Shown piece by piece: positions 3,537 through 59,771 of a DNA stretch of 64,000 nucleotides (positions are counted from its first letter, which is position 1; each line of letters starts with the position of its first letter). Where the stretch lies: the NCBI GenBank assembly GCA_964618505.1, contig CAZUBH010000012.1:2288-66287 (forward strand). Direction: 5' to 3'. The translations under genes and the position numbers were made by a program. Origin of the DNA: an uncultured Thermoplasmatales archaeon. GTDB taxonomy: Archaea > Thermoplasmatota > E2 > DHVEG-1. The notes under the pieces are model-generated. The model saw only the letters and a list, made by a program, of their open reading frames with translations. It was not told the DNA's origin and ran no database searches.

Positions 3537-3805
3537 ATTCTGCCGACATCGACTACTTCAACATTATCAATATTTTCAATTTTTGAAAGTGTTTCAATTA
3601 CCGGATCTAGTCCACCTTGATCATCAGGAACAGATACTGTAACATCAACGCCTTTCAAACCAAAAGCAATATTTTTAACTTCAACTTTTCCAAGTTTTAC
3701 CGGTGATTTTATGAGTTTTCTTACGTCATTTATTACTCTTTCTATTTTATCGTCTTCTAATACGCCATCTGGCATCATTCGTATGAGTGCTATAACCTCT
3801 CCCAT
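3533..3805 (-). CDS. ef1b: translation elongation factor aEF-1 beta
   Basis: About 90 aa, starting MGEVIALIRMMPDGVLEDD... and ending ...IDNVEVVDVGRI, as archaeal EF-1beta does. A GGAGGT Shine-Dalgarno sits 5 nt upstream of the ATG at 3805. The longer ORF-track start at 3838 would overlap the upstream zinc-ribbon gene. Confidence 0.8.
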   Translation of the reverse strand: MGEVIALIRMMPDGVLEDDKIERVINDVRKLIKSPVKLGKVEVKNIAFGLKGVDVTVSVPDDQGGLDPVIETLSKIENIDNVEVVDVGRI

Positions 3806-3818
3806 AGTGTTTACCTCC

Positions 3819-3983
3819 TTATGGACCTGTAAAATCACATTTTGAGCATTTATATGTTATACTTTGCTCTCTGCAATTGCTACATCTGCCGATAATTTCT
3901 TCGCATGATGGACATTTAAATGTGGTTGAACCTCTCTCTAAAAGGCCTTTTCCACAGGTTGTACAATTTTCTGCCTTTTGCAT
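3819..3983 (-). CDS. small zinc-ribbon protein (C4 type, about 54 aa) upstream of EF-1beta
   Basis: Hand translation of the minus strand gives MQKAENCTTCGKGLLERGSTTFKCPSCEEIIGRCSNCREQSITYKCSKCDFTGP*. It carries several CxxC pairs and is not in the ORF track because it is shorter than 60 aa. A small Zn-ribbon gene next to EF-1beta is a conserved archaeal gene pair. Confidence 0.6.
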   Translation of the reverse strand: MQKAENCTTCGKGLLERGSTTFKCPSCEEIIGRCSNCREQSITYKCSKCDFTGP

Positions 3984-4044
3984 AGGATGAGCTGAATAAC
4001 ATATCTTATATTAAAATGTGACGTCTCCTTAGACTCAGAAAAAC

Positions 4045-23255: not shown

Positions 23256-25085
23256 TTAGAATATTTTTCTTGCTATTAAAAGATCCATATTTACATTTCC
23301 AGCATTGTCATAAGCAATTACTACAAGTTCATATTTATTTTTTATCAGAGTTGTGTCTTCCCAATCCCACTCATAAGGTGCTTCATAATCTGTAAAGACT
23401 GCAAATGGTTCGCTATCAAGATAAAATTCAACCTTTTCAATTCCTGATTCAAAATCTTCTGCTTGAACTTGAATTAAAATATCCCCAATTATAATCGTTT
23501 TTTGTTTTATAATTGACGATAATAAACTTCTACCCATAATATAGAGCCCATTTTGTGGAGATGTAATCTCTACGAAAGGTTCTGTTGTATCTTCTCCAGG
23601 TTCAGTTTGCATAAGTGGATAATTATCTTTTCCCATTCCATCTTCGATTTCATATAGAACATCACCAATACCGTCACTGCCTAATTGGTCTTGATTTGGG
23701 CCTTGATATAGATCCTCACCCATGTAATCGCTCCAATAATTTCCTCCAGAAGGATAGCCGTTATCCCAAAGATTGTTAGAATCATCATATGCATTGTGTG
23801 CGTTATCTAAAAAGATATTGTGATAAATTTTGTTGTAAGAAGATTCTTCAATACCAACACCCGCATAGCCGTTATTTGAAATTGTATTGTTAAAAATTTG
23901 ATTTTCATCACAATTGTTTTTTATGTAAATACCGTTCCATGTATTATTCATTATTTTATTATTGAACATCTTATTCTCATCTGAAGAACATTTCAAGTAA
24001 ATTCCATGATAATTTGAAGTTACTATGTTGTCTTTTAAGACGCACTCATCCTTGATTATTTTAATACCTGCATCATTTAGATCATTACCACTATTTTTTA
24101 CAGTAAATCCACTAAGCTTTACAAAATGATCATTTCTTCCACCACAAATTCTAACTACCGTATCAGAAAGTCTACCATCAATCATTGTTGTTTCTTTGTT
24201 TTCTCCCAAAAGATATATTTTTTTGTAGATTAGTATATGTTCATGGTAAACATCGTTTAATACAAAGATTGTATGACCGCAATTTGTATCAGAATCGTCA
24301 ATTGAATCCTGAATTGTAATAAACATCTCTTTTGTATCCAAATTTTGAATGGAGCCAAAATAATGTATTAAAGGATACCAATCTCTTGTCTCGTTTCCAT
24401 AAATATCGTAAGGAGTTTCACCTATGCCATCCTCGTCATCATCTACGCCATCATAATCATCCCAAAAGTTACCGCCTATAACTGACCCTTGATCCCAAAT
24501 ATTGTTATTTTCGTCAGAAACATGCACATTATTTGAAATAAAGTTATTGTGAAATATTTCATTATCTGTATCTGTTGTTCTAATACCTATGTTATTTTCT
24601 ACAATATTGTTATTTTCAATTATACAATAACGTGAATTAAGGATAACACCTGCGTCATTTTGCTCATTTCCGCTATTTTTAATTGTAAATCCATTAATGT
24701 AAACACAATCTGATGTAAGCGTTATTACACTGCAACAGTTTTCTCCATCAATTATTGTTGTTTCTTTGCACTCACCATAAAAATAAAGTGTTTTATGTAC
24801 TACTATACTTTCAAAATATGTTCCATTAAAAACAAAAATTTCATCATAACAATTTGAATTATCTATAGCGTCTTGAATATATTGATAAGGATGTTCTAAA
24901 CTTCCATCCCATGGACCAAGAGTATTGTCATCATCAACATAAATCATATCTGATAATCTATCGTTTTGATCTTTAGGTAAAGTATTTTTTGTTTTTTGTA
25001 AAATCGCGGTTGCTGAGGGCAATACAAGTATGACCACTATCAGCAAAACTATATATTTCAAATTAATAAATTTGAAGCTTTTCAT
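23256..25085 (-). CDS. secreted or surface protein with parallel beta-helix repeats, paralogue of 5301..6482, with an extra C-terminal about 100-aa domain
   Basis: Signal peptide is present. The N-terminal region (YVDDDNTLGPWDGSLEHPYQYIQDAIDNSN) aligns by eye with LYVGGLGPNNYTKIQDAIDNANND of the 5301 protein. Beta-helix repeats recur in the pattern N.I.NN..GI. Confidence 0.65.
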   Translation of the reverse strand: MKSFKFINLKYIVLLIVVILVLPSATAILQKTKNTLPKDQNDRLSDMIYVDDDNTLGPWDGSLEHPYQYIQDAIDNSNCYDEIFVFNGTYFESIVVHKTLYFYGECKETTIIDGENCCSVITLTSDCVYINGFTIKNSGNEQNDAGVILNSRYCIIENNNIVENNIGIRTTDTDNEIFHNNFISNNVHVSDENNNIWDQGSVIGGNFWDDYDGVDDDEDGIGETPYDIYGNETRDWYPLIHYFGSIQNLDTKEMFITIQDSIDDSDTNCGHTIFVLNDVYHEHILIYKKIYLLGENKETTMIDGRLSDTVVRICGGRNDHFVKLSGFTVKNSGNDLNDAGIKIIKDECVLKDNIVTSNYHGIYLKCSSDENKMFNNKIMNNTWNGIYIKNNCDENQIFNNTISNNGYAGVGIEESSYNKIYHNIFLDNAHNAYDDSNNLWDNGYPSGGNYWSDYMGEDLYQGPNQDQLGSDGIGDVLYEIEDGMGKDNYPLMQTEPGEDTTEPFVEITSPQNGLYIMGRSLLSSIIKQKTIIIGDILIQVQAEDFESGIEKVEFYLDSEPFAVFTDYEAPYEWDWEDTTLIKNKYELVVIAYDNAGNVNMDLLIARKIF

Positions 25086-25193
25086 AATTTTTCCTCCCTT
25101 TAAATGTGCTAAAATATCTTATTTATTAGCGCGATTGTTATATTTATTTTTATATTTAAGTATTACTGTAAAAATATGAAATAAAATTAAAAA

Positions 25194-26309
25194 TTACATA
25201 TATAAAAAATTACCTTTTTTATATATAAGTTCATTGTCTGCATAAACTTCACCATCCTTTCTTAAATCACACATCATATCCCAATGAAGACTTGATTTAT
25301 TTTTACTGCCGGTCTCAGGATATCCGCTACCAACTGCAATATGAATAGTTCCTCCAATTTTTTCATCAAATAGTGTGTTTTTTGTATAATGCTTTATACC
25401 ATAATTCGTACCAAAAGCAAATTCTCCTATTTTTCTTGAACCTTTATCCATGTCAAGCATTGAATTTAAAAAATTTAGGCCTTTTGAAGCCTTTGATTTC
25501 ACTACTTTTCCTTTTTCAAACCATAATTTGATATCATCAACTTCTCTTCCGCCATGAGATGCAGGAAAAGAGTATGATATATAGCCTTCTGCAGAATTTT
25601 CCACGGGGCCTGTGAAAACTTCACCATCTGGAAAATTTTCTTTTCCATAGCAATTTATCCATTTTCTTTTTTCAACAGAAATTTTCAAATCTGTATCTTT
25701 TGCGATTACGTGAATTTTTTTTATTTTATCTAATTTCTTTTTTATCTTCTGTTGCTCGACACGCATTTTCTCCCAATATTTGACAGGGTCTTTTTTATCA
25801 ACATGGGCGGCTTTAAATAGAAATTCTTCATAATCTTCTAAGGACATATCTGCATCCTGAGCAGATGCATTTGTTGGATATTGAGTAATGCACCATCTAA
25901 GTTTTTTTTCTGAAGCTCTTTTTAAAAATATTTCATGTATTTCTTTATTTGCAACACTTGCCTTTGCTTGTTTTTTTGAGTCAATATTTGTCATATTTTT
26001 AGTGTTCTCCGGACTAATTATTGCAAGCTTTGCGTCAATTTTTTCTATTTCAAATTTTGACAAGGGCGACATGTAATTTAGTTGATTATCTGATGCGTAT
26101 TTGAAATAAGTTTCAGCAAGACCATCAATTCCTATTCTGGTAAAAGGATGTGCTCCTTTGAGTATTGATTGCTTATAAACTTCTTTTATTAAAGGTGCCG
26201 CGAGATAACTACCAGATATCATAAATAAATCATTTTTTTTAATTGATAATGAGTGATTAATTAGGATGCTAGCCAGTTTTTCAATTCTTTTGTCAATCAT
26301 TAAAATCAT
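25194..26309 (-). CDS. aminopeptidase, M29 family (AmpS / aminopeptidase T-like)
   Basis: The length and overall sequence are recognised as thermophilic metalloaminopeptidase M29. The start may be the Met at 26300. Confidence 0.55.
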   Translation of the reverse strand: MILMIDKRIEKLASILINHSLSIKKNDLFMISGSYLAAPLIKEVYKQSILKGAHPFTRIGIDGLAETYFKYASDNQLNYMSPLSKFEIEKIDAKLAIISPENTKNMTNIDSKKQAKASVANKEIHEIFLKRASEKKLRWCITQYPTNASAQDADMSLEDYEEFLFKAAHVDKKDPVKYWEKMRVEQQKIKKKLDKIKKIHVIAKDTDLKISVEKRKWINCYGKENFPDGEVFTGPVENSAEGYISYSFPASHGGREVDDIKLWFEKGKVVKSKASKGLNFLNSMLDMDKGSRKIGEFAFGTNYGIKHYTKNTLFDEKIGGTIHIAVGSGYPETGSKNKSSLHWDMMCDLRKDGEVYADNELIYKKGNFLYM

Positions 26310-26349
26310 AAAAAGAATGGTTGAAAATATGAAATACTTTTCTTAGAAA

Positions 26350-27588
26350 TTAAATATTTTCCCATTCTCTTAGTACGGATTCCCATTTGTAGCTATCAAT
26401 GCCGTCTATTTCAGCAATTTTTCTTAGTATATTTTCATATCCTTTAACTAGTGTTCTTGTTCTAATTTTTACAATATAATCATAGGGTCCTGCTGTAGCA
26501 GTAACTCTTGTTACGCCTCTTACATTCCATATTTTTTTCATGGTTTCGTCTATTGGATATCCGGTTTTCATCTTGATAAAAATATAGGCTTTTGTTAATG
26601 TCAACGCAAATGAAAGTATTCCTAAAACCATTAATGAAATACCCATGGTCTTTATCAGTAATAAAACTGGATCTGTAGAAAAAGGTTCTATAATACCCAA
26701 ATAAGCAAGAACAATTGAAACAGGAAGTGTAAAAATTATTATGGACGATCTGACTGCCTGTACAACACTGGCTTTTCCAATACCCAGCGATCTAATATAT
26801 AATGTAAATGAAAAGAAAGTGCCTATAGCTATCAAAGCAATCCAACCAAAATTTTCTATTGAGGCAGATATGCTTTGTGCTACCCTATTAGTATTGTTAA
26901 CAAAATCAAATATCATTACAAAAATTATCGTAAAAATACACGCAAATGTGACATTCCAGAGTCTAATATTAATAGAATCGTTTGGAGAGTTTTTAATTTT
27001 CATCATTTTTAATTTTCTTTGACCGAGAGAAAATAAAACCCAACCCGGATTAATAACCAAAAATACCACTGCAAGGGATTGTAAACTTAACGATCCGCTC
27101 AGGCTAATCGAACCTAGAATGGCACCAAAAGTAACTATTGCAGAAGACTGTATCTCTACCAAGGTAGGTACATTTTTTTCAGTTATTGATTCAAAAATTA
27201 CTAGATATAAAATAACTACTTGTGAAAATGGTAAGACCACTGATGGATCGCCCAGCATAGATAATAATTCAAAATAGCCGAGTGTCATTATCGCATTGCC
27301 AAGGCCTGCAATAAGATGATATTTCAATTCTTGTTTTTTAATTAATCTTATTTTCTTAAAGGATGGATCAATTATTTTTGATCCAAGGCTTTTTTCTCCA
27401 ATTTTAATTGAAAAAAATAATGTGAACAAAAAGGAGACTAAGACCCCAAGTAAAAAAACTGAAAGACCTAGTACCCAAGGATCTTCGATAAATACTTTAA
27501 CTACTGCATCAAAACCAGACATTATTGCAGCAATTATGGATGAAGTAAATGCAAGAACATAAAATAGATATCTCTTTGTTATTTTCAT
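26350..27588 (-). CDS. multi-TM membrane protein with C-terminal Lrp/AsnC-type ligand-binding (RAM) domain
   Basis: About 10 TM helices over about 340 aa. The C-terminal about 70 aa (KIWNVRGVTRVTATAGPYDYIVKIRTRTLVKGYENILRKIAEIDGIDSYKWESV) resembles the betaalphabetabetaalphabeta RAM domain. The start overlaps the upstream RAM gene by 4 nt. Confidence 0.5.
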   Translation of the reverse strand: MKITKRYLFYVLAFTSSIIAAIMSGFDAVVKVFIEDPWVLGLSVFLLGVLVSFLFTLFFSIKIGEKSLGSKIIDPSFKKIRLIKKQELKYHLIAGLGNAIMTLGYFELLSMLGDPSVVLPFSQVVILYLVIFESITEKNVPTLVEIQSSAIVTFGAILGSISLSGSLSLQSLAVVFLVINPGWVLFSLGQRKLKMMKIKNSPNDSINIRLWNVTFACIFTIIFVMIFDFVNNTNRVAQSISASIENFGWIALIAIGTFFSFTLYIRSLGIGKASVVQAVRSSIIIFTLPVSIVLAYLGIIEPFSTDPVLLLIKTMGISLMVLGILSFALTLTKAYIFIKMKTGYPIDETMKKIWNVRGVTRVTATAGPYDYIVKIRTRTLVKGYENILRKIAEIDGIDSYKWESVLREWENI

Positions 27589-27833
27589 AATGCGATTTCT
27601 TTTTCAATTACCTGCGTAGTTGTTTTTTTAACGCCTTTAATCATTTGAAGTTTATTTGTAACTTTTAGAAGATTTTCTAAACTTTTTACATGAACTCTAA
27701 CAACTATATCATACTCGCCTGCAACAACAGAAATTTTTTCTACATTTTCTATTTCTCTCATTTCTGATATTGCTTTATTTGAGTCGCCGGGTTCCATTGA
27801 TAATAGTATATATGCATTTATCATATTTTGCAC
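27585..27833 (-). CDS. standalone Lrp/AsnC ligand-binding (RAM) domain protein
   Basis: 82 aa. INAYILLSMEPGDSNKAISEMREIENVEKISVVAGEYDIVVRVHVKSLENL matches the AsnC_trans_reg C-terminal domain pattern without an HTH. Confidence 0.6.
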   Translation of the reverse strand: MQNMINAYILLSMEPGDSNKAISEMREIENVEKISVVAGEYDIVVRVHVKSLENLLKVTNKLQMIKGVKKTTTQVIEKEIAL

Positions 27834-27916
27834 CTAATTTTCAGGCCGTATATCCATCTGTATTATAAATTTAACTACTAAAAAAACTTTTATTTAGAAA
27901 TAGGTTGTGACAATAA

Positions 27917-29632
27917 GTGTTAAAAGCAACCATTATTGACGGTTATATAGACGAACCAACCTGCTTAGGGGTTCCACCCTACATAAGTCCTTACCCTAGA
28001 TACATTGCAGGATCGATAATAACTTTTGATAAAAAATCTCAAATATGTTATTTTACAATTGATCAAATTAGAAAAGACGAGTCGTTAGTCAATATAGCAT
28101 CTTCATCAGACATAGTTGTAATTATTGCAGGCGTTTCTGTTCCAGGTAAATATCTTTCTGGATATCCTGCAAGTCCTAATGAAATTATATCTTTGTTAAA
28201 AAAAGTTAAAAATCCGGTTAAAATTTTAGTAGGACCTGCTGCAAAATATGGATTTGGTCTTTTTGGAGGCAAGTCTATAAAAGATATCGAAACATACAAA
28301 GATTTTTTTGATTTAGTTATAAAAGGAGACGCCGAGATAACGATCTTCAATCTTTTAAAAGAAAAATTAAAAGTAGAAAATGTTAATCAATTACAATTAA
28401 GAAAAAATGGCCATTCAATAAGAGATTTTGCAATTTTAGGATCCGATATTGTAACCAAACATCCTTTTTTCCCAGATTATTTAATCGCAGAAATTGAAAC
28501 CTTTAGAGGTTGCCCGAGAAGTTATTCTGGCGGTTGTTCATTTTGTAGTGAGCCTTCAAAAGGTCTTCCAGATTTTCGGCCAATCAAAGATATTGTAGAT
28601 GAAATTGATGAACTTTATAAAAAAGGCATTAAAAATTTTAGACTAGGAAATCAGCCATGTATTTTTTCATATATGGCAAAAAATGCCGAAACAGAAGAAT
28701 TCCCAAAGCCAAACCCTGAATTATTAACTAAGTTATTCTCAAAAATTAGAGAGGTTGCAGCTAATCTTAAAACACTTCACATAGACAACGCCAATCCAGG
28801 AGTTATCGCTAGATTTCCTGATGAATGCAAAAAGATTGCAAAAACAATAATAAAATATCATACACCTGGGGATGTTGCTGCTTTTGGTATAGAAAGCGTT
28901 GATCCACAAGTAATAAAACAAAATAATTTAAAGGCAGATCCTGAAGATTCTTTAAAGGCAATTAAAATTTTAAATGAGGTTGGCTCAAAATTGGGTTCAA
29001 ACGGAATGCCCGAGCTACTTCCTGGACTGAATTTTGTATTCGGATTGAAGGGAGAGACAAAAACAACATTTGATTTAAATTTTCAGTTTTTGAAAAATAT
29101 TTTGGATGAAAAATTGCTAGTTAGAAGAATCAATATAAGACAGGTTATTCCAATCCCAGAAACAAAAATGTATGAATTAGGAATAAAAAATGTAGTTAAG
29201 CACAAGAAAGACTTTAAAATATTTAAAAGGAGAGTAAAGGAAGAAATTGAAAGGCCTATGCTTAAAGAAGTTGTTAAAAAAGGAACTGTTTTAAAAGATG
29301 TGTATACAGAATGCTATGAAGGGAAATTAACATTTGCAAGGCAATTAGGTAGCTATCCTTTACTTATAGGAATCCCAGGGGTTATTCACTTAAACAAATT
29401 TTACAATCTAAAAGTCATAGATTACGGTTTTAGATCTGTAACTGCAATACCTTATCCTCTAGACATTAACAAATCGCAAAGAAAAACATTGGAAGCAATT
29501 CCTGGTATTGGTAAAAAAAGGGTTGTAAAAATTCTTGCAAATCGACCGTTTAAAAACAAGGAAGAGTTAAAGCAAACAATCGATGATTCTGATGTTTTAT
29601 TATCACTTTTGAAATATGTAGAGTTCAAGTGA
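27917..29632 (+). CDS. radical SAM-superfamily enzyme with C-terminal helix-hairpin-helix motif (archaeal COG1031-like)
   Basis: The Cys cluster ETFRGCPRSYSGGCSFC has C-x7-C-x2-C spacing, which is non-canonical. There is a TIM-barrel-like middle region. The C-terminal LEAIPGIGKKRVVKILANRPF is a HhH motif. Confidence 0.5.
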   Translation: MLKATIIDGYIDEPTCLGVPPYISPYPRYIAGSIITFDKKSQICYFTIDQIRKDESLVNIASSSDIVVIIAGVSVPGKYLSGYPASPNEIISLLKKVKNPVKILVGPAAKYGFGLFGGKSIKDIETYKDFFDLVIKGDAEITIFNLLKEKLKVENVNQLQLRKNGHSIRDFAILGSDIVTKHPFFPDYLIAEIETFRGCPRSYSGGCSFCSEPSKGLPDFRPIKDIVDEIDELYKKGIKNFRLGNQPCIFSYMAKNAETEEFPKPNPELLTKLFSKIREVAANLKTLHIDNANPGVIARFPDECKKIAKTIIKYHTPGDVAAFGIESVDPQVIKQNNLKADPEDSLKAIKILNEVGSKLGSNGMPELLPGLNFVFGLKGETKTTFDLNFQFLKNILDEKLLVRRINIRQVIPIPETKMYELGIKNVVKHKKDFKIFKRRVKEEIERPMLKEVVKKGTVLKDVYTECYEGKLTFARQLGSYPLLIGIPGVIHLNKFYNLKVIDYGFRSVTAIPYPLDINKSQRKTLEAIPGIGKKRVVKILANRPFKNKEELKQTIDDSDVLLSLLKYVEFK

Positions 29633-29668
29633 AAAATTAATTTAGTTATTTCATATAATGATTAAAAC

Positions 29669-30115
29669 ATGTCTGATAATTACAAAAAAATAGAAGATAT
29701 ACTTGGCCACAAATTTAAAGATAAGACTCTTCTCAAAGAAGCTTTAACCCACAAAACTTATGCATTTGAAGCTGACAAACCTGTTGATTATAATGAAAGA
29801 CTTGAATTTTTAGGGGACAGTGTTTTAAACTTTATTGTTTCAGAAGAGCTTTACAAAAGCAATATGTTTCTTTCTGAAGGGGAACTTACAAGAAGAAGAG
29901 CATTCATTGTTAACAATAAAGTGCTGGCAAATATTGCTAAAGATATGTGTATAGGTAAGTATCTGCTATTTGGAGTTGGTGAAAAAAAACAGGATGGGCA
30001 AAAAAATGATACTAATCTTGCAAACGCATTGGAAGCGCTAATTGGGGCAATTTATCTAGACTCTAATATAAAAACCGTTAGAGAGTTTGTTTTAAACAAA
30101 ATTTTTACAAAATAA
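29669..30115 (+). CDS. RNase III catalytic-domain-only protein (Mini-III-like)
   Basis: ERLEFLGDSVLNFIVSEELY matches the RNase III signature ERLEFLGD. It is 148 aa with no dsRBD. Confidence 0.7.
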   Translation: MSDNYKKIEDILGHKFKDKTLLKEALTHKTYAFEADKPVDYNERLEFLGDSVLNFIVSEELYKSNMFLSEGELTRRRAFIVNNKVLANIAKDMCIGKYLLFGVGEKKQDGQKNDTNLANALEALIGAIYLDSNIKTVREFVLNKIFTK

Positions 30116-30543
30116 TATCTATTTAAAAATAAGTACAAAATATTTATAGAAAAATTTATATAATAAACATTTATCCCTTGTCTCAATCAAGGTAATCGAA
30201 TGGGGACCATTTTTCCTTTAAAATCATTCTCATCACCTCCCCTCCTCCCCATTCATTATCATTTATAAATTAATAAAAAAAATGAATTTTTAAATTTTAA
30301 ATTTTAATTATCCTGCTACCAATCTGATAACAATTCCAAATAGAAATACAGAGGATAATGTAATCAGATAGAATAGAGTCCTCTCCCAATCTTCCTCGAC
30401 TACTATTCCCATCCTTTTGTCACCGGATAACAGATTTTTTTTTAACTTTTAAACTTTTCTAAATTTTACTCGTCATATGACGACAATAAATAATAGAAGA
30501 TGTAATTAAGAAAAAATGCATTCCTATTATAGATGGTGATTTC

Positions 30544-30957
30544 GTGTTTGTAAAAGATTTGATGTCAAAAAACGTAGTTACTATTGAAGAAGATGAACTT
30601 GTTTATGACGCTTGCAAAACTTTAAAGAATAAAGGAGTTGGGTGTCTCATAGTTACAAAAAATGGAGTAGTAAATGGAATTATCACCGAAAGAGACATGA
30701 TTGACAGAATAATACTTGACCAAAGAGACCCAAAGAAAACTAAAGTTTTTGACGTTATGACAAAAAATATCAAAACAATACATGCGTCTGCAAAATTAGA
30801 ACAGGCAGCCGAAATTATGAGTAAAAATAAGATAAAGAGATTACCTGTAATACTAAATAACGAAATATCCGGTATCATAACAGTTACAGATCTTGCAAAT
30901 ACCATGCCCAACTTTGTAAAAGAGTTTATTGAAGAACAGCCATTTAAGTTTATTTAA
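30544..30957 (+). CDS. CBS domain pair protein
   Basis: 137 aa with two CBS-like repeats (VVTIEEDELVYDACKTL..GCLIVT and TIHASAKLEQAAEIMSKNKIKRLPV). Confidence 0.65.
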   Translation: MFVKDLMSKNVVTIEEDELVYDACKTLKNKGVGCLIVTKNGVVNGIITERDMIDRIILDQRDPKKTKVFDVMTKNIKTIHASAKLEQAAEIMSKNKIKRLPVILNNEISGIITVTDLANTMPNFVKEFIEEQPFKFI

Positions 30958-31002
30958 CAATTATTAAAAAGAGAAATCCTCATTATAATATATGTTGGCG
31001 AA

Positions 31003-57908: not shown

Positions 57909-59189
57909 TTAGTCCTCAATCTCTATATTTAATACAACTGGACCAAAGACAAAAGCATTTGCTTTGAGTTTTACTTTATTGGCGTTTTCTGCATTTGCAG
58001 AAACTTCGATTTCTATGTTTCCGAATCTTAAGAGACCAACTGAGACTTTGTCTGTTTGGATTTCTTCGTTGATGTTTATTTCATCAAATTCTCCTTCAAC
58101 ATCAACATCAATTAAACCTAGTATGCCACCCTCAACCTCAATATTCCATGATCCATTTACAGCTGCTGCGTCTCCTATATTTTTTATAGTTGCACTTATT
58201 CCACCAAATCCTCCAGAAATATTTACTATGTCTAATTCGGGTTCTTCTGGCACAGCTAAAATAGAAGCTGTTGTATTGTCTTCTGCAAATACGCCCTGAT
58301 TATCTGTTACTGTTAAATTTACTATAAATTCTCCGATAAAACTGTAGTTATGTATTGGATTTTGCTCTGTAGAGTTTGTCCCATCACCAAAATCCCACAA
58401 AAATGAATATGGTTCTTCTCCCCCATATGCCATACCTGAGAATTGAATATCTTCGCCTACAAACGCTTCATATGGACCGCTTGCATCAGCTTCTAAAGGT
58501 TCTGGTATCAATACAATTGCCCCTATGTTCCAGTTGTAATCAAGTTGGCCTGGCGGATCTGTCACATCATATATTTCACTCCAAGACGCTCCATTTGTGC
58601 TAATCCACCCACCTTTACCTCTTAACATAGGACTTTGACCAACACCTAGTGGAAATTGATCGGCTGCATGGGCAACTCTTACAACACACCAAAGATCTTG
58701 AGAACCATCAATTGAATATGGTTCATTGAGAGATACATCAAGCCATCCAGTTTCGGAAACTTCCCCCACATTAATTTGTTGTATTATGGAGCCTGGTGAA
58801 GATGAAGTGCCCTGTGATCTTAGATAAACAACCACGTTTGTCGGAGGATCTGCTGGAAGTTCACCCGCCATTTGATGATGCCATCTTATTTTTGAAATAT
58901 TCTCTCCATCATATTCTCCAAGTTCATCCGGTGTTAATCTAATGGCTCCATAAAATGTTCCTCCAGATTGAAGACCAATGGAGTTTTGATTGAGATCGCC
59001 ATCATAACTAAGATAAATTTCTGACCTATCAGAATCGCTACTTGCTTCATTTATGTTTTCCATGCTAGATAATAAAAATATTTTTTTATCTTTATTTGTA
59101 TCTGCTATAACAGCTGCTGATGTTAGAAACAACATCAGTGCTATAAACAGAACTATGGCGTTTTTAAAAATTTTTTTTCCTATTCTCAT
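57909..59189 (-). CDS. secreted protein with PKD domain and C-terminal beta-sandwich
   Basis: Signal peptide. The PKD motif reads FSGMAYGGEEPYSFLWDFGDGTNSTEQNPIHNYSFIGEFIVNLTVTDNQG (WDFGDG...H.Y). Confidence 0.7.
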   Translation of the reverse strand: MRIGKKIFKNAIVLFIALMLFLTSAAVIADTNKDKKIFLLSSMENINEASSDSDRSEIYLSYDGDLNQNSIGLQSGGTFYGAIRLTPDELGEYDGENISKIRWHHQMAGELPADPPTNVVVYLRSQGTSSSPGSIIQQINVGEVSETGWLDVSLNEPYSIDGSQDLWCVVRVAHAADQFPLGVGQSPMLRGKGGWISTNGASWSEIYDVTDPPGQLDYNWNIGAIVLIPEPLEADASGPYEAFVGEDIQFSGMAYGGEEPYSFLWDFGDGTNSTEQNPIHNYSFIGEFIVNLTVTDNQGVFAEDNTTASILAVPEEPELDIVNISGGFGGISATIKNIGDAAAVNGSWNIEVEGGILGLIDVDVEGEFDEININEEIQTDKVSVGLLRFGNIEIEVSANAENANKVKLKANAFVFGPVVLNIEIED

Positions 59190-59516: not shown

Positions 59517-59771
59517 TTATTCTCCGGAAAGGCTTTTTGTTCCTATCAGTGTTTTTGAATCAACAATACCTTTTTTTGATCTTATCTTGTTTATTACTAC
59601 ATCGCCGATAGAGTCTATATCGCCAGATTCGATTTTAATTAGAATATCATATTCTCCAAATAAGGGGTGTATCTCTGTAACTTCTGGCATTTGTTTTAAT
59701 GCCTGATATACTTCTTTTTCTTTTAGCGGGCTTATGCTTAATAACGCAAATCCTATTGCCATATTCCCCAA
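59517..59771 (-). CDS. standalone Lrp/AsnC ligand-binding (RAM) domain protein, paralogue of 27585..27833
   Basis: ALLSISPLKEKEVYQALKQMPEVTEIHPLFGEYDILIKIESGDIDSIGDVV aligns by eye with the 27585 protein. Confidence 0.55.
   Translation of the reverse strand: MGNMAIGFALLSISPLKEKEVYQALKQMPEVTEIHPLFGEYDILIKIESGDIDSIGDVVINKIRSKKGIVDSKTLIGTKSLSGE

Follow-up and report, generated by a model that had tools for sequence, protein, structure and literature searches.

A conserved archaeal gene pair encoding a divergent 10-TM DMT-fold protein with a C-terminal RAM domain and a free RAM protein

Analysis of the window, the whole 64-kb stretch of DNA studied here, revealed two overlapping genes that encode a free RAM protein of 79 amino acids and a 412-amino-acid protein in which a 10-TM domain with the DMT/EamA transporter fold is followed by a cytoplasmic RAM domain. 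Free RAM and transporter-RAM form a conserved two-gene module. In our favored reading, to which we assign a probability of roughly 0.55, this module is an allosterically regulated secondary transporter with a hetero-oligomeric RAM sensor, and its cargo would probably be an amino acid or a compound closely derived from one.

Results

Organization of the gene pair

The free RAM gene (27585..27824, minus strand; 79 amino acids plus stop, PF01037 match) lies directly upstream of the transporter-RAM gene (26350..27588, minus strand; 412 amino acids, stop codon at 26350..26352, minus strand), as taken from the open reading frame list and the sequence. The stop of the first and the start of the second share the ATGA tetranucleotide at 27585..27588 (minus strand), so that the 4-nt overlap given in the preliminary description can be read directly from the sequence; on the basis of this overlap, translational coupling of the two genes is probable. 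The same description had assigned 82 amino acids and coordinates 27585..27833 to the small gene. Its open reading frame stands and its start is revised: translation probably begins at the ATG at 27824 and not at the GTG at 27833, because this GTG falls within a Shine-Dalgarno-like AGGTG (27831..27835, minus strand) located 6 nt 5′ of the ATG, because gene callers give 79 to 81 amino acids in homologous loci, and because Met is found at the aligned position in 73 of 79 orthologues. Of 76 loci, 60 have a Shine-Dalgarno-like tetramer no more than 20 nt away from the start.

Further upstream, a TATA-like box, TTTATAAT, was read from the sequence at 27862..27869 (minus strand), 38 to 45 nt 5′ of the ATG of the free RAM gene. 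TATA-like hexamers cluster 41 to 50 nt 5′ of the start codon in the 76 homologous loci (99 matches in two bins), and the box is the probable archaeal promoter of the two-gene unit. Flanked by the TATA box and the Shine-Dalgarno-like motif, at 27837..27850 (minus strand), is a conserved motif, TACGGCCTGAAAAT, recognized by eye in the upstream sequences. Its counterpart in many homologous loci is TCCGGCTGTGAAAT, and it may represent an initiator region, a 5′UTR or an operator. No Rfam match was obtained for window positions 24000 to 31000.

The free RAM protein

The small gene encodes a RAM domain without a helix-turn-helix (HTH), as had been proposed, with 48.4 bits to PF01037 (cutoff 25) and no HTH match. 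Its closest solved relatives are the stand-alone RAM proteins STS042 (2zbc, E = 3.6e-7) and DM1 (2e1a), from which we infer a RAM fold for the protein. Among the orthologues, G36, D39 and T68 are retained in 79/79 and T70 in 78/79; these are the canonical residues contacting the amino-acid backbone, and they are also kept in the aligned distant partners. They align with G36, D39, T69 and T71 of STS042, whose effector is Ile (PMC2995911), and correspond to Gly102, Thr133 and Ser135 of MtbLrp. In the latter, Gly102 lies in the binding loop and Thr133 and Ser135 of the neighboring subunit hold the ligand carboxylate; the Gly/Asp/Thr-x-Thr set as a whole holds the α-amino and α-carboxylate groups of the ligand (PMC2175373).

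The transmembrane domain

The 10-TM assignment made earlier from the sequence was borne out by ten helices in the hydropathy profile and in the AF2 model of the 412-amino-acid protein (pLDDT 86.4, pTM 0.81), where they span residues 5–33, 37–59, 85–112, 115–136, 143–159, 169–195, 205–231, 247–268, 273–296 and 307–328. For this transporter domain (residues 1–330; 26599..27588, minus strand), K+R counts gave an N-in/C-in topology. In 44 fused members, the N-terminus and loops 2-3, 4-5, 6-7 and 8-9 carry 10.9 K+R versus 1.4 in the other loops, placing both termini and the RAM domain in the cytoplasm according to the positive-inside rule.

Foldseek searches of the PDB identified the DMT fold, with matches to LicB (target-normalized TM-score 0.80–0.83), TPT (0.70), Vrg4, CST, YddG, PfCRT and SLC35B1, all at a probability of 1.00; TM-scores of the DMT structures ranged from 0.59 to 0.83 (target-normalized) at sequence identities of 10 to 16%. 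The earlier guess of an EamA fold was correct for the fold itself and for family member P0179, which scored 38.0 bits to PF00892 (cutoff 28.2), but the window protein remained below the Pfam threshold at 13.9 bits; P0162 and P0154 reached 25.9 and 24.2 bits. In P0179 the EamA match covers repeat 1, whereas the window protein is matched over repeat 2. When the profiles of the N-terminal and C-terminal halves were compared by hhalign, they aligned in register (6–163 with 1–166) at weak to marginal significance (P ≈ 0.006–0.009). D27 in TM1, E145 in TM5 and D204 and R209 in loop 6-7 were invariant in 29/29 sequences, and D27, IDPxF, DPS, E145, DSxNxRxW and YIRALGxGK are motifs particular to the family. 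The TM region has a transporter fold of the DMT/EamA type and is not a known enzyme family with a coincidental tail. As modeled, the 412-amino-acid protein is a divergent 10-TM DMT/EamA-fold protein, predicted to function in transport, with a C-terminal RAM domain.

One family member, P0140 (469 amino acids), was considered as a fusion of free RAM and transporter and was rejected, its extra residues being an insertion in loop 2-3. No natural fusion carrying two RAM domains was seen among the family members.

The fused RAM domain

The C-terminal part of the 412-amino-acid protein had been described as RAM-like from its sequence, and four lines of analysis agree on a RAM fold. The fused cytoplasmic RAM was assigned to residues 332–406 (26371..26595, minus strand) from PF01037, the PDB profile and the AF2 model. 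Residues 337–406 matched PF01037 with 30.7 bits (cutoff 25), and a family profile searched against the PDB retrieved stand-alone RAM crystal structures with residues 331–407 at E = 5e-13. The AF2 model shows the β-α-β-β-α-β order at 332–405, with strands at 332–340, 359–364, 371–377 and 397–405 and helices at 346–354 and 380–392, and superposition on the stand-alone RAM protein TTHA0845 (2djw) using Foldseek gave a TM-score of 0.86 and an rmsd of 2.0 Å. The tether between TM10 and the RAM domain comprises only about 3 residues and is constant in length in 43 of 44 members; the pTM of 0.81 over the whole chain suggests that the two domains are oriented to each other in a defined way.

The fused RAM retains the Gly/Asp loop (G367 in 82/82, D370 in 79/82) and has Y400-K-W402 at the position of the Thr-x-Thr motif, in accordance with a clade pattern of Y or F at 400 and W at 402 (79/82). 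In deeper-branching fused RAMs, T or S occupies position 402 in 15/18 sequences and T position 400 in only 2/18. Trp402 is taken as the derived state because of the Thr or Ser found there in the deeper branches. The change from Thr to Trp could alternatively have created a built-in pseudo-ligand, or the fused RAM could have lost sensing.

No HTH was detected by Pfam and NCBIfam models in the free RAM, the 412-amino-acid protein or a second free RAM of the window, and NCBIfam regulator models matched in their C-terminal ligand-binding part only (e.g., LysM, 23–36 bits versus a cutoff of 180). The JGI name for these proteins, "DNA-binding Lrp family transcriptional regulator," is a misannotation, since an HTH is lacking and the N-terminal 330 residues of the 412-amino-acid protein are membrane helices. 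No PII family was found among the Pfam matches down to E = 1.

Conservation of the gene pair in archaea

A genome scan with a closer alignment as query, a broad one being too divergent, yielded 80 loci, a sample biased to the clade of the window; distant branches were sampled individually. The hosts are uncultured Thermoplasmatota known from metagenome-assembled genomes (MAGs). In 76 of the 77 assessable Thermoplasmatota loci, which derive from different species, the free RAM gene lies directly upstream of the transporter-RAM gene; this recurrence puts the pairing far beyond chance. The ATGA overlap is found in 70/77 assessable loci and also in the distant members L085 and L087, and L081 likewise has a free RAM partner joined by ATGA, while the genes flanking the pair vary between loci. 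In the exceptional locus (L025), no free RAM gene was found within 4 kb; here the partner may be unnecessary, or its gene may lie at another site.

Each of the five distant fused members that were inspected (22–29% identity) adjoins a free RAM gene. Three of them are labeled Woesearchaeota, Thorarchaeota and Nanohaloarchaea, and in one the order is reversed, with the free RAM gene downstream instead of upstream. The survey for the fusion in other archaea that had been recommended at the outset traced the pair to lineages labeled as four archaeal phyla.

Pairwise divergence of the free RAM correlated with that of the fused RAM at r = 0.80 and with that of the TM domain at r = 0.62, values obtained from non-independent pairs and short domains; mean identities were 64–65% for both RAMs versus 58% for the TM part. 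That the free RAM follows the fused RAM more closely than the TM domain is a hint of co-evolution.

The second free RAM of the window

A second stand-alone RAM protein is encoded at 59517..59771 (minus strand; PF01037, 50.9 bits). The preliminary description had called it a paralogue of the free RAM; it proved to be a genuine RAM protein but no close copy, with 24% identity to the 79-amino-acid RAM. Its translation probably starts at the ATG at 59762, giving 81 and not 84 amino acids, a version exactly identical to database protein P0212. The 669 homologues, of about 82 amino acids and at best 75–85% identical, occur in the same Thermoplasmatota lineages, and the protein belongs to a separate orthologous group that is even better conserved. 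No link to the transporter was seen. The three RAMs are mutually about 24–25% identical over their full length, and a free-RAM HMM scored the fused RAM (28.6 bits) and the 84-amino-acid paralogue (26.3 bits) about equally, which rules out a recent duplication as their source.

Genomic neighbors and RAM-less relatives

A gene for an M29 aminopeptidase (25194..26309, minus strand; PF02073, 314 bits) is located 40 nt downstream of the pair. Such a gene is directly downstream in 32 of the 76 loci with sufficient flanking sequence and is absent in L003 and L010; a functional link through the release of free amino acids is possible. A radical SAM/HHH gene lies upstream in 12/71 loci. At these frequencies, neither gene was accepted as a core part of the module.

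RAM-less relatives of the TM domain had no RAM gene nearby in the loci examined. The informative loci of this group belong to remote bacterial relatives (20–25% identity), and in three of five of them the gene lies directly downstream of trpS. The two trpS neighbors tested scored 183 and 249 bits to TIGR00233 (cutoff 176.75), and one trpS-linked locus additionally contains TrpR and chorismate mutase. The fifth sister locus (P0206/L095) is not beside trpS, P0197 is flanked by IS elements, and no trpS was found near loci of the fused family. Taken as sequence context, the trpS linkage of the RAM-less relatives and the M29 neighbor are hints of an amino-acid substrate, the former specifically of tryptophan. 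Transporter classifications contain a "putative tryptophan efflux" DMT family, which was given no weight in this reading. The only T-box among the bacterial sister loci (L093; 74 bits, gathering score 93) precedes a PF00591 gene and not the trpS-DMT genes. With this element off-target and no Rfam match at the window locus, a T-box or riboswitch was discarded as a clue to the direction of transport.

Discussion

Amino-acid-gated transport or signaling had been suggested for the pair in the preliminary description, and we infer the same. The case is strengthened because the pair is conserved across phyla, including a locus with swapped gene order, because the free RAM shows essentially no variation in its ligand-contact residues, because the RAM domain is cytoplasmic and follows TM10 after a short tether whose length is constant, and because the RAM-less relatives have no RAM neighbor. 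Upon co-translation, free and fused RAM would together build a hetero-oligomeric sensor. The binding pocket of Lrp/AsnC proteins lies between subunits, the Gly-containing loop being provided by one and the Thr/Ser pair by its neighbor. In the clade studied here, the fused RAM would offer the loop half only, and the free RAM both halves; with only a half site on the fused RAM, a canonical site involving the transporter would therefore have to be completed by the free RAM. At rising cytoplasmic levels of the cognate amino acid, its binding may change the assembly or conformation of the RAM domains, and this change would pass through the short, rigid tether to TM10 and bias the alternating-access cycle of the carrier. 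Two outcomes are conceivable: export through a carrier opening like an overflow valve, which we slightly favor, or import that is shut off by trans-inhibition. LicB, the best structural match, acts as an importer.

A more specific version of this scheme can be put forward tentatively and is possible at best: the Gly/Asp loop of the fused RAM and the Thr-x-Thr motif of the free RAM would form a split site, and ligand-dependent assembly at this site would gate the DMT transporter directly. If true, transport would be controlled post-translationally in a new way, and the "demi-FFRP" proteins would have their first physiological role that does not involve transcription.

The output of the pair might instead be signaling. 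As a transceptor or membrane-sequestration device, the membrane-bound RAM would capture and release the free RAM or full-length Lrp/FFRP regulators depending on the amino-acid level or the transport state, thereby setting the pool of RAM subunits available to DNA-binding Lrp proteins and thus transcription. DM1 indeed forms hetero-octamers with FL11 in vitro, proposed as the reason for stand-alone RAMs (PMC2995911), AmtB sequesters GlnK at the membrane (PMC10710835), and the genome contains at least one further conserved free RAM. We nevertheless consider this function unlikely: the ATGA overlap, shared by 70/77 loci, points to synthesis of both proteins in equal amounts and to a stable complex and not a shuttling pool, no full-length Lrp/AsnC gene is present in the 64-kb window or consistently near the pair in other loci, and the invariant intramembrane residues D27 and E145 together with the preserved DMT fold argue for a maintained carrier function.

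The residue pattern also bears on whether the RAMs sense anything. Their role might be purely structural, as a scaffold for oligomerization or assembly; the free RAM would then cap the exposed β-sheet of its fused counterpart or serve as a factor for assembly. Conservation of all four ligand-contact residues in 78–79 of 79 free RAM orthologues is hard to explain without ligand binding, and retention of the Gly/Asp loop in 79–82 of 82 fused RAMs points in the same direction, which makes a scaffold improbable despite the missing Thr-x-Thr half-site in the fused RAM of this clade. In its favor, the minimal RAM unit is a dimer with a hydrophobic β-sheet core, so that a carrier that is monomeric and has one RAM could cover the sheet face only with the help of a partner, and several Lrp-like proteins have been predicted or observed to be unresponsive to amino acids (PMC2995911).

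The compound both sensed by the RAM pair and carried could also be something other than a proteinogenic amino acid (a dipeptide, cofactor, 2-oxo acid or modified amino acid, for instance), given that DMT carriers move choline, nucleotide sugars, triose phosphate and drugs and that the neighboring genes vary (M29 or M20 peptidases, acetyltransferases). The conserved Gly/Asp/Thr-x-Thr set, which holds α-amino and α-carboxylate groups (PMC2175373), speaks against such a cargo, and we rate its chances as low. That the two genes are unrelated neighbors, their adjacency being a relic of duplication or fission and the free RAM acting elsewhere, would agree with the only ~25% identity of the two RAMs and with the lack of a free RAM gene in L025, but appears close to refuted by the conservation data, as adjacency persists in 76/77 loci despite changing flanks, in lineages labeled as four archaeal phyla, down to 22–24% identity and through an order reversal, and as the RAM-less relatives have no RAM neighbor.

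We found no publication describing a RAM-fused transporter with a free RAM partner, in line with the initial impression that the architecture had not been characterized. The gated transporter proposed here has its closest parallels in several known systems. The methionine importer MetNI is trans-inhibited via a C-terminal methionine-binding domain, and as in the scheme above, a small C-terminal domain holds the transport cycle back by binding a cytoplasmic amino acid where two domains meet (PMC10710835). Unlike the secondary DMT-fold carrier studied here, MetNI is a primary ABC importer with the sensor on its ATPase subunit; this sensor domain does not belong to the RAM family (PF01037), and its two copies stem from a homodimer without a separately encoded free paralogue. 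The C2 domain of MetNI has an ACT-like ferredoxin fold. With GlnK-AmtB, the module shares a small soluble sensor whose gene adjoins and is co-expressed with that of the controlled transporter, at a 1:1 ratio (PMC10710835). However, PII trimers plug the channel by their T-loop (PMC10710835), and no sensor copy is fused to the transporter. The resemblance is one of logic only. SbtB-SbtA is similar to GlnK-AmtB.

The stand-alone RAMs (DM1 of P. horikoshii, STS042 of S. tokodaii, TTHA0845 of T. thermophilus and TvDM of T. volcanium) and the Lrp/AsnC (FFRP) regulators belong to the same domain family and fold, and share their ligand-contact residues with the free RAM. Hetero-oligomers of a RAM-only and a RAM-containing protein are documented for DM1-FL11, amino acids shift the assembly states of RAMs, and the physiological role of stand-alone RAMs was called unclear in a 2010 review (PMC2995911). 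Their known partners are DNA-binding transcription factors, whereas here the partner is a polytopic membrane carrier without an HTH; the module would assign a stand-alone RAM a permanent partner that does not act in transcription. In divergent gene pairs of Lrp/AsnC and EamA type, such as PA2577/PA2576 of P. aeruginosa, a sensor of the Lrp/AsnC type likewise controls an EamA/DMT carrier (PMC8707732). There, control is transcriptional through an HTH and an operator; here, an HTH is lacking and carrier and sensor are parts of one polypeptide, implying control at the post-translational level. LicB (a choline importer), YddG, TPT and the nucleotide-sugar transporters Vrg4/CST/SLC35 share the 10-TM fold, but no match extends over the C-terminal RAM region. 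YddG is an aromatic amino-acid exporter.

That transporters gain plug-on cytoplasmic domains for fast allosteric control is already known, with CBS, C2, RCK, USP, cNMP and PII modules documented; a 2023 review of transporter regulatory domains does not mention RAM/Lrp-type domains (PMC10710835). What the module adds is the direct attachment of a RAM sensor, known almost only from transcription factors, to a secondary carrier. Genes for an Lrp/AsnC regulator and an EamA transporter are commonly paired, and the module would be the post-translational equivalent of that arrangement. With its genetically fixed free RAM subunit, it suggests a definite role for stand-alone RAM proteins that can be put to the test, and the asymmetric residues, with a complete site in the free RAM and half a site in the fused RAM, predict a heteromeric binding site. 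Hundreds of database entries now labeled as DNA-binding Lrp regulators should be re-annotated, and a ligand-gated exporter might find use as a part for amino-acid production strains. Related sediment lineages are described as degraders of proteins and peptides, and an amino-acid-gated valve would fit this physiology.

Results

The pair consists of two (−)-strand ORFs, 27585..27833 (82 aa from GTG) and 26350..27588 (412 aa from ATG), which overlap by four bases, read in the sequence as ATGA. Pfam analysis of the small product, hereafter the free RAM, gave a match to the Lrp/AsnC ligand-binding domain (RAM, PF01037) at 48.4 bits (gathering score 25) and no helix-turn-helix (HTH) was found; residues 337–406 of the 412-aa protein (transporter-RAM) matched PF01037 at 30.7 bits, and its only other Pfam match, to EamA (residues 203–294, 13.9 bits), was under the 28.2-bit threshold. 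The preliminary description had read this arrangement as an HTH-less RAM gene overlapping by 4 nt the gene of a 10-TM protein with a RAM-like C-terminus of about 70 residues, and was borne out in each of these points. Its 82-aa gene does exist as an ORF, but the true start is more probably ATG 27824 (79 aa) than GTG 27833, because the GTG sits inside an AGGTG motif 6 nt 5' of this ATG, gene callers assign 79–81 aa in homologous loci, and Met occupies the aligned position in 73/79 orthologues.

Across homologous loci, a TATA-like box accumulates 41–50 nt 5' of the free-RAM start, which an SD-like motif precedes in 60/76 loci, consistent with a single promoter serving both genes. Between the two elements lies a conserved motif (27837–27850 (−), TACGGCCTGAAAAT in the window; TCCGGCTGTGAAAT or TTCGGGCTGAGAAT at the same position in many of the loci L001–L084) that could be an initiator region, a 5'UTR element or the operator of a regulator.

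The AF2 model of the 412-aa protein, calculated from a 50-sequence alignment, is confident (mean pLDDT 86.4, pTM 0.81); it contains ten long helices and, after them, a domain of beta-alpha-beta-beta-alpha-beta order spanning residues 332–405. Whether the membrane region is EamA or another transporter, a question raised in the preliminary description, was addressed by Foldseek against the PDB: at E ≤ 6e-4, every match was a carrier of the drug/metabolite-transporter (DMT) fold, namely Vrg4, the CMP-sialic acid transporter, the triose-phosphate translocator, LicB (target-normalised TM 0.80–0.83), YddG and SLC35B1, with PfCRT as a further match (E=1.8e-3). The remaining matches were Lrp/AsnC proteins; the stand-alone RAM TTHA0845 superimposed on the RAM region with TM 0.86 and an rmsd of 2.0 Å over 79 residues. 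Stand-alone RAMs were also the best PDB matches of the family sequence profile (2cvi, 5e-13; DM1/2e1a, 2e-12; STS042/2zbc, 3e-11). Distant family members attain the EamA gathering score (38.0 bits across the entire first repeat in the database protein P0179), and profile–profile comparison revealed a weakly visible internal 5+5 repeat in register (P=0.006–0.009). The 412-aa protein is composed of a DMT fold and PF01037.

In 44 fused members, the Lys+Arg count of the N-terminus plus alternate loops was 10.9, versus 1.4 for the other loops, which places both termini of the carrier, and hence the RAM domain, in the cytoplasm. TM10 ends at approximately residue 328 in the model, the first RAM strand starts at 332, and the G323–Y335 spacing is the same in 43/44 members; the tether between TM10 and RAM is therefore short and of fixed length. 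Within the carrier, D27, E145, D204 and R209 are shared by every one of the 29 sequences in a wide alignment.

When 1.84 billion cluster representatives were scanned exhaustively with phmmer, just 88 clusters proved related to the 412-aa protein, and the alignment of every full-length member included the C-terminal RAM, down to 23–29% identity. Scanning a single genome for each GTDB species gave 109 relatives, from which 80 loci were kept, all from uncultured Thermoplasmatota. A same-strand RAM ORF lies immediately 5' of the transporter-RAM gene in 76 of the 77 loci with an assessable 5' side, with the ATGA overlap in 70 and a gap of 4–39 nt in six. L025 is the only close-clade locus in which the free RAM gene is absent within 4 kb on either side, and the partner may have been lost or moved; approximately 300 nt of AT-rich non-coding DNA (3700–4000) precede its transporter gene. 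The adjacent free RAM was retained in all five distant fused members examined (22–29% identity), three of which are labelled Woesearchaeota, Thorarchaeota and Nanohaloarchaea in their source records. Among these, two show a 4-nt overlap and two a 4-nt gap, and in the Thorarchaeota-labelled locus (L088, GCA_013388835.1, 4001–5517) the order is reversed, with the free RAM gene following the transporter-RAM gene after 6 nt. This persistence of adjacency despite a changed gene order is strong evidence that the two proteins are functionally linked.

Lrp/AsnC proteins hold the amino acid between subunits, with the conserved-Gly loop (Gly102 in MtbLrp) on one side and Thr133/Ser135 of the neighbouring octamer subunit on the other (PMC2175373, PMC2995911). 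Of 79 free RAMs, all have G36, D39 and T68, and 78 have T70; these residues align with G36, D39, T69 and T71 of STS042, listed as Ile-binding in a 2010 review (PMC2995911). In 82 fused RAMs, the loop is kept (G367 82/82, D370 79/82), and the Thr-x-Thr positions are taken by [Y/F]400 and W402 (W in 79/82). W402 represents a derived state, since in a wider alignment it is restricted (with Tyr in one member) to proteins sharing 37% identity or more with the window protein, and 18 deeper members mostly carry T (11) or S (4) at this position (other, 3); T at 400 occurs in only two of them. By homology, the fused RAM of the window's clade would supply the loop half alone of the canonical site, and the Thr half would have to come from the free RAM. 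Mean pairwise identity is 0.64 and 0.65 for the two RAMs versus 0.58 for the TM domain, and free-RAM divergence correlated with that of the fused RAM at r=0.80 versus r=0.62 for the TM domain; as sequence pairs are non-independent, this closer tracking of the fused RAM is suggestive only.

A profile built from orthologues detected three RAM domains in all in the 64-kb window. The third, a second free RAM noted in the preliminary description, was confirmed at 59517..59771 (−) (50.9 bits); it probably starts at ATG 59762, giving the 81 aa of the database protein P0212. At 24% identity, a recent copy of the transporter-linked RAM is ruled out. With other ~82-aa proteins it forms a separate orthologous group (669 matches, best at 75–85% identity), which occurs in the same Thermoplasmatota lineages and is better conserved than the transporter pair. 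The second free RAM retains the canonical G-E-Y-D loop and has an S-K-T motif.

Among relatives of the TM domain that lack a RAM, the nearest (330–350 aa, E-values 1e-7 to 3e-4) have no Pfam match. They have the TM1 Asp, IDPxF and D-x-x-N motifs in common with the fused family, and no RAM gene was found near them in the five loci inspected. Three of the five proteins show just 26–29% identity to the alignment reference P0189, yet in the loci of all three trpS lies 10–128 nt upstream of the carrier gene (L089, 1811–4059; L090, 1959–4041; L093, 1955–4029); the two trpS products tested scored 183 and 249 bits against TIGR00233 (cutoff 176.75), and L089 also contains TrpR and chorismate mutase. 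The trpS-linked DMT-like proteins are bacterial, have 340–350 aa and stem from mutually very divergent loci. That the RAM-less sister group is bacterial follows from a T-box leader in L093 (6409–6624 (−), 74 bits, E=1e-14, under the gathering score of 93). The gene 3' of the T-box, near the trpS-DMT pair, encodes a 441-aa protein with PF00591 (glycosyl transferase family 3, TrpD/thymidine phosphorylase family), and a tRNA gene lies just 5' of trpS. The trpS linkage, in three of five loci and in remote relatives only, hints that this DMT-fold branch acts on tryptophan or aromatic amino acids. These apparently unannotated proteins are candidate tryptophan transporters.

The flanks of the pair are not conserved across loci, and in the complete genome CP070712 the neighbours are entirely different. 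An M29 aminopeptidase gene lies downstream in 32/76 close-clade loci (25194–26309 (−) in the window), and a radical SAM/HHH gene precedes the pair in 12/71. The divergent window copy (27917–29632 (+)) encodes a radical SAM protein of 571 aa whose C-terminal part carries helix-hairpin-helix motifs, and is followed by a 148-aa ORF (29669–30115 (+)), whose 153-aa counterpart in L001 has RNase III domains; both genes are kept in L001/L002, but only in ~12/71 loci. Peptidase and amino-acid-modifying genes recur around fused and RAM-less members alike: M20 peptidases lie close to the carriers of L089 (4122–5243) and L091 (767–2077), and a weak GNAT-like gene (223–233 aa) directly 3' of the RAM-less carrier in L090 (4084–4755) and of the fused, Nanohaloarchaea-labelled one in L091 (4186–4887). 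Two large window ORFs with hydrophobic N-termini (23256–25085 (−) and 57909–59189 (−)) resemble secreted proteins, the L001 homologue of the former having NosD, beta-helix and Big_7 domains; they would be in line with a host that lives by degrading polymers or proteins outside the cell.

Discussion

The analysis shows the two folds, the membrane topology, the linkage of the genes and the conservation of residues; the physical complex, ligand, substrate and direction of transport are what we infer from them. The 412-aa protein would be a secondary transporter, probably of an amino acid, and a RAM sensor in the cytoplasm, a hetero-oligomer of the fused domain with the co-translated free RAM, would bias its alternating-access cycle. 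Should the level of the cognate amino acid rise, RAM–RAM assembly or conformation would change, in the manner of the amino-acid-driven dimer/octamer shifts of DM1, FL11 and Lrp (PMC2995911). The short tether would relay this change to TM10. The carrier could be an exporter that opens on overflow, which we slightly favour; the characterised prokaryotic DMT-fold amino-acid carriers (RhtA, EamA, YddG) are known as exporters. Alternatively, it could be an importer closed by trans-inhibition, for which MetNI sets a precedent (PMC10710835). Amino-acid-gated transport or signalling, as proposed in the preliminary description, is supported as a hypothesis.

Two other readings appear unlikely to a similar degree. 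The protein might act as a transceptor that sequesters RAM subunits and so influences Lrp-type transcription factors; the RAM profile search found no full-length Lrp regulator within the 64-kb window. The RAM might also be a purely structural scaffold, a reading to be set beside the conserved ligand-contact residues. A ligand or cargo other than a standard amino acid is less probable still, and with adjacency so persistent we give hardly any credence to the free RAM and transporter-RAM being unrelated neighbours.

The logic of the proposed amino-acid-biased carrier resembles that of MetNI, with its fused substrate-sensing domain at the carrier C-terminus, and that of GlnK-AmtB, where the gene of the small sensor GlnK is co-transcribed with its transporter; the transporter-RAM pair belongs to neither family. 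Lrp/AsnC and EamA families are often linked transcriptionally, e.g., PA2577/PA2576 (PMC8707732), and the module looks like a post-translational version of this link. Full-text literature searches turned up no publication describing a DMT-RAM or EamA-AsnC fusion, in keeping with the initial impression of an uncharacterised architecture, and neither RAM nor Lrp domains are mentioned in a 2023 review on how transporters are regulated post-translationally (PMC10710835). The plug-on principle is familiar; new here is that a RAM, accompanied by a free paralogue as its obligatory partner, would serve as the plug-on allosteric domain of a transporter.

Automatic annotation widely names the 412-aa proteins 'DNA-binding Lrp family transcriptional regulator' at JGI, and at NCBI 'Lrp/AsnC family transcriptional regulator'. 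An Lrp/AsnC transcription regulator is ruled out because the defining HTH is absent, and these names are misleading, a systematic misannotation of ten-TM, HTH-free proteins. Although uncharacterised so far, the architecture is strongly conserved and hints at a mechanism, and from the module a testable role can be proposed for stand-alone RAM proteins.
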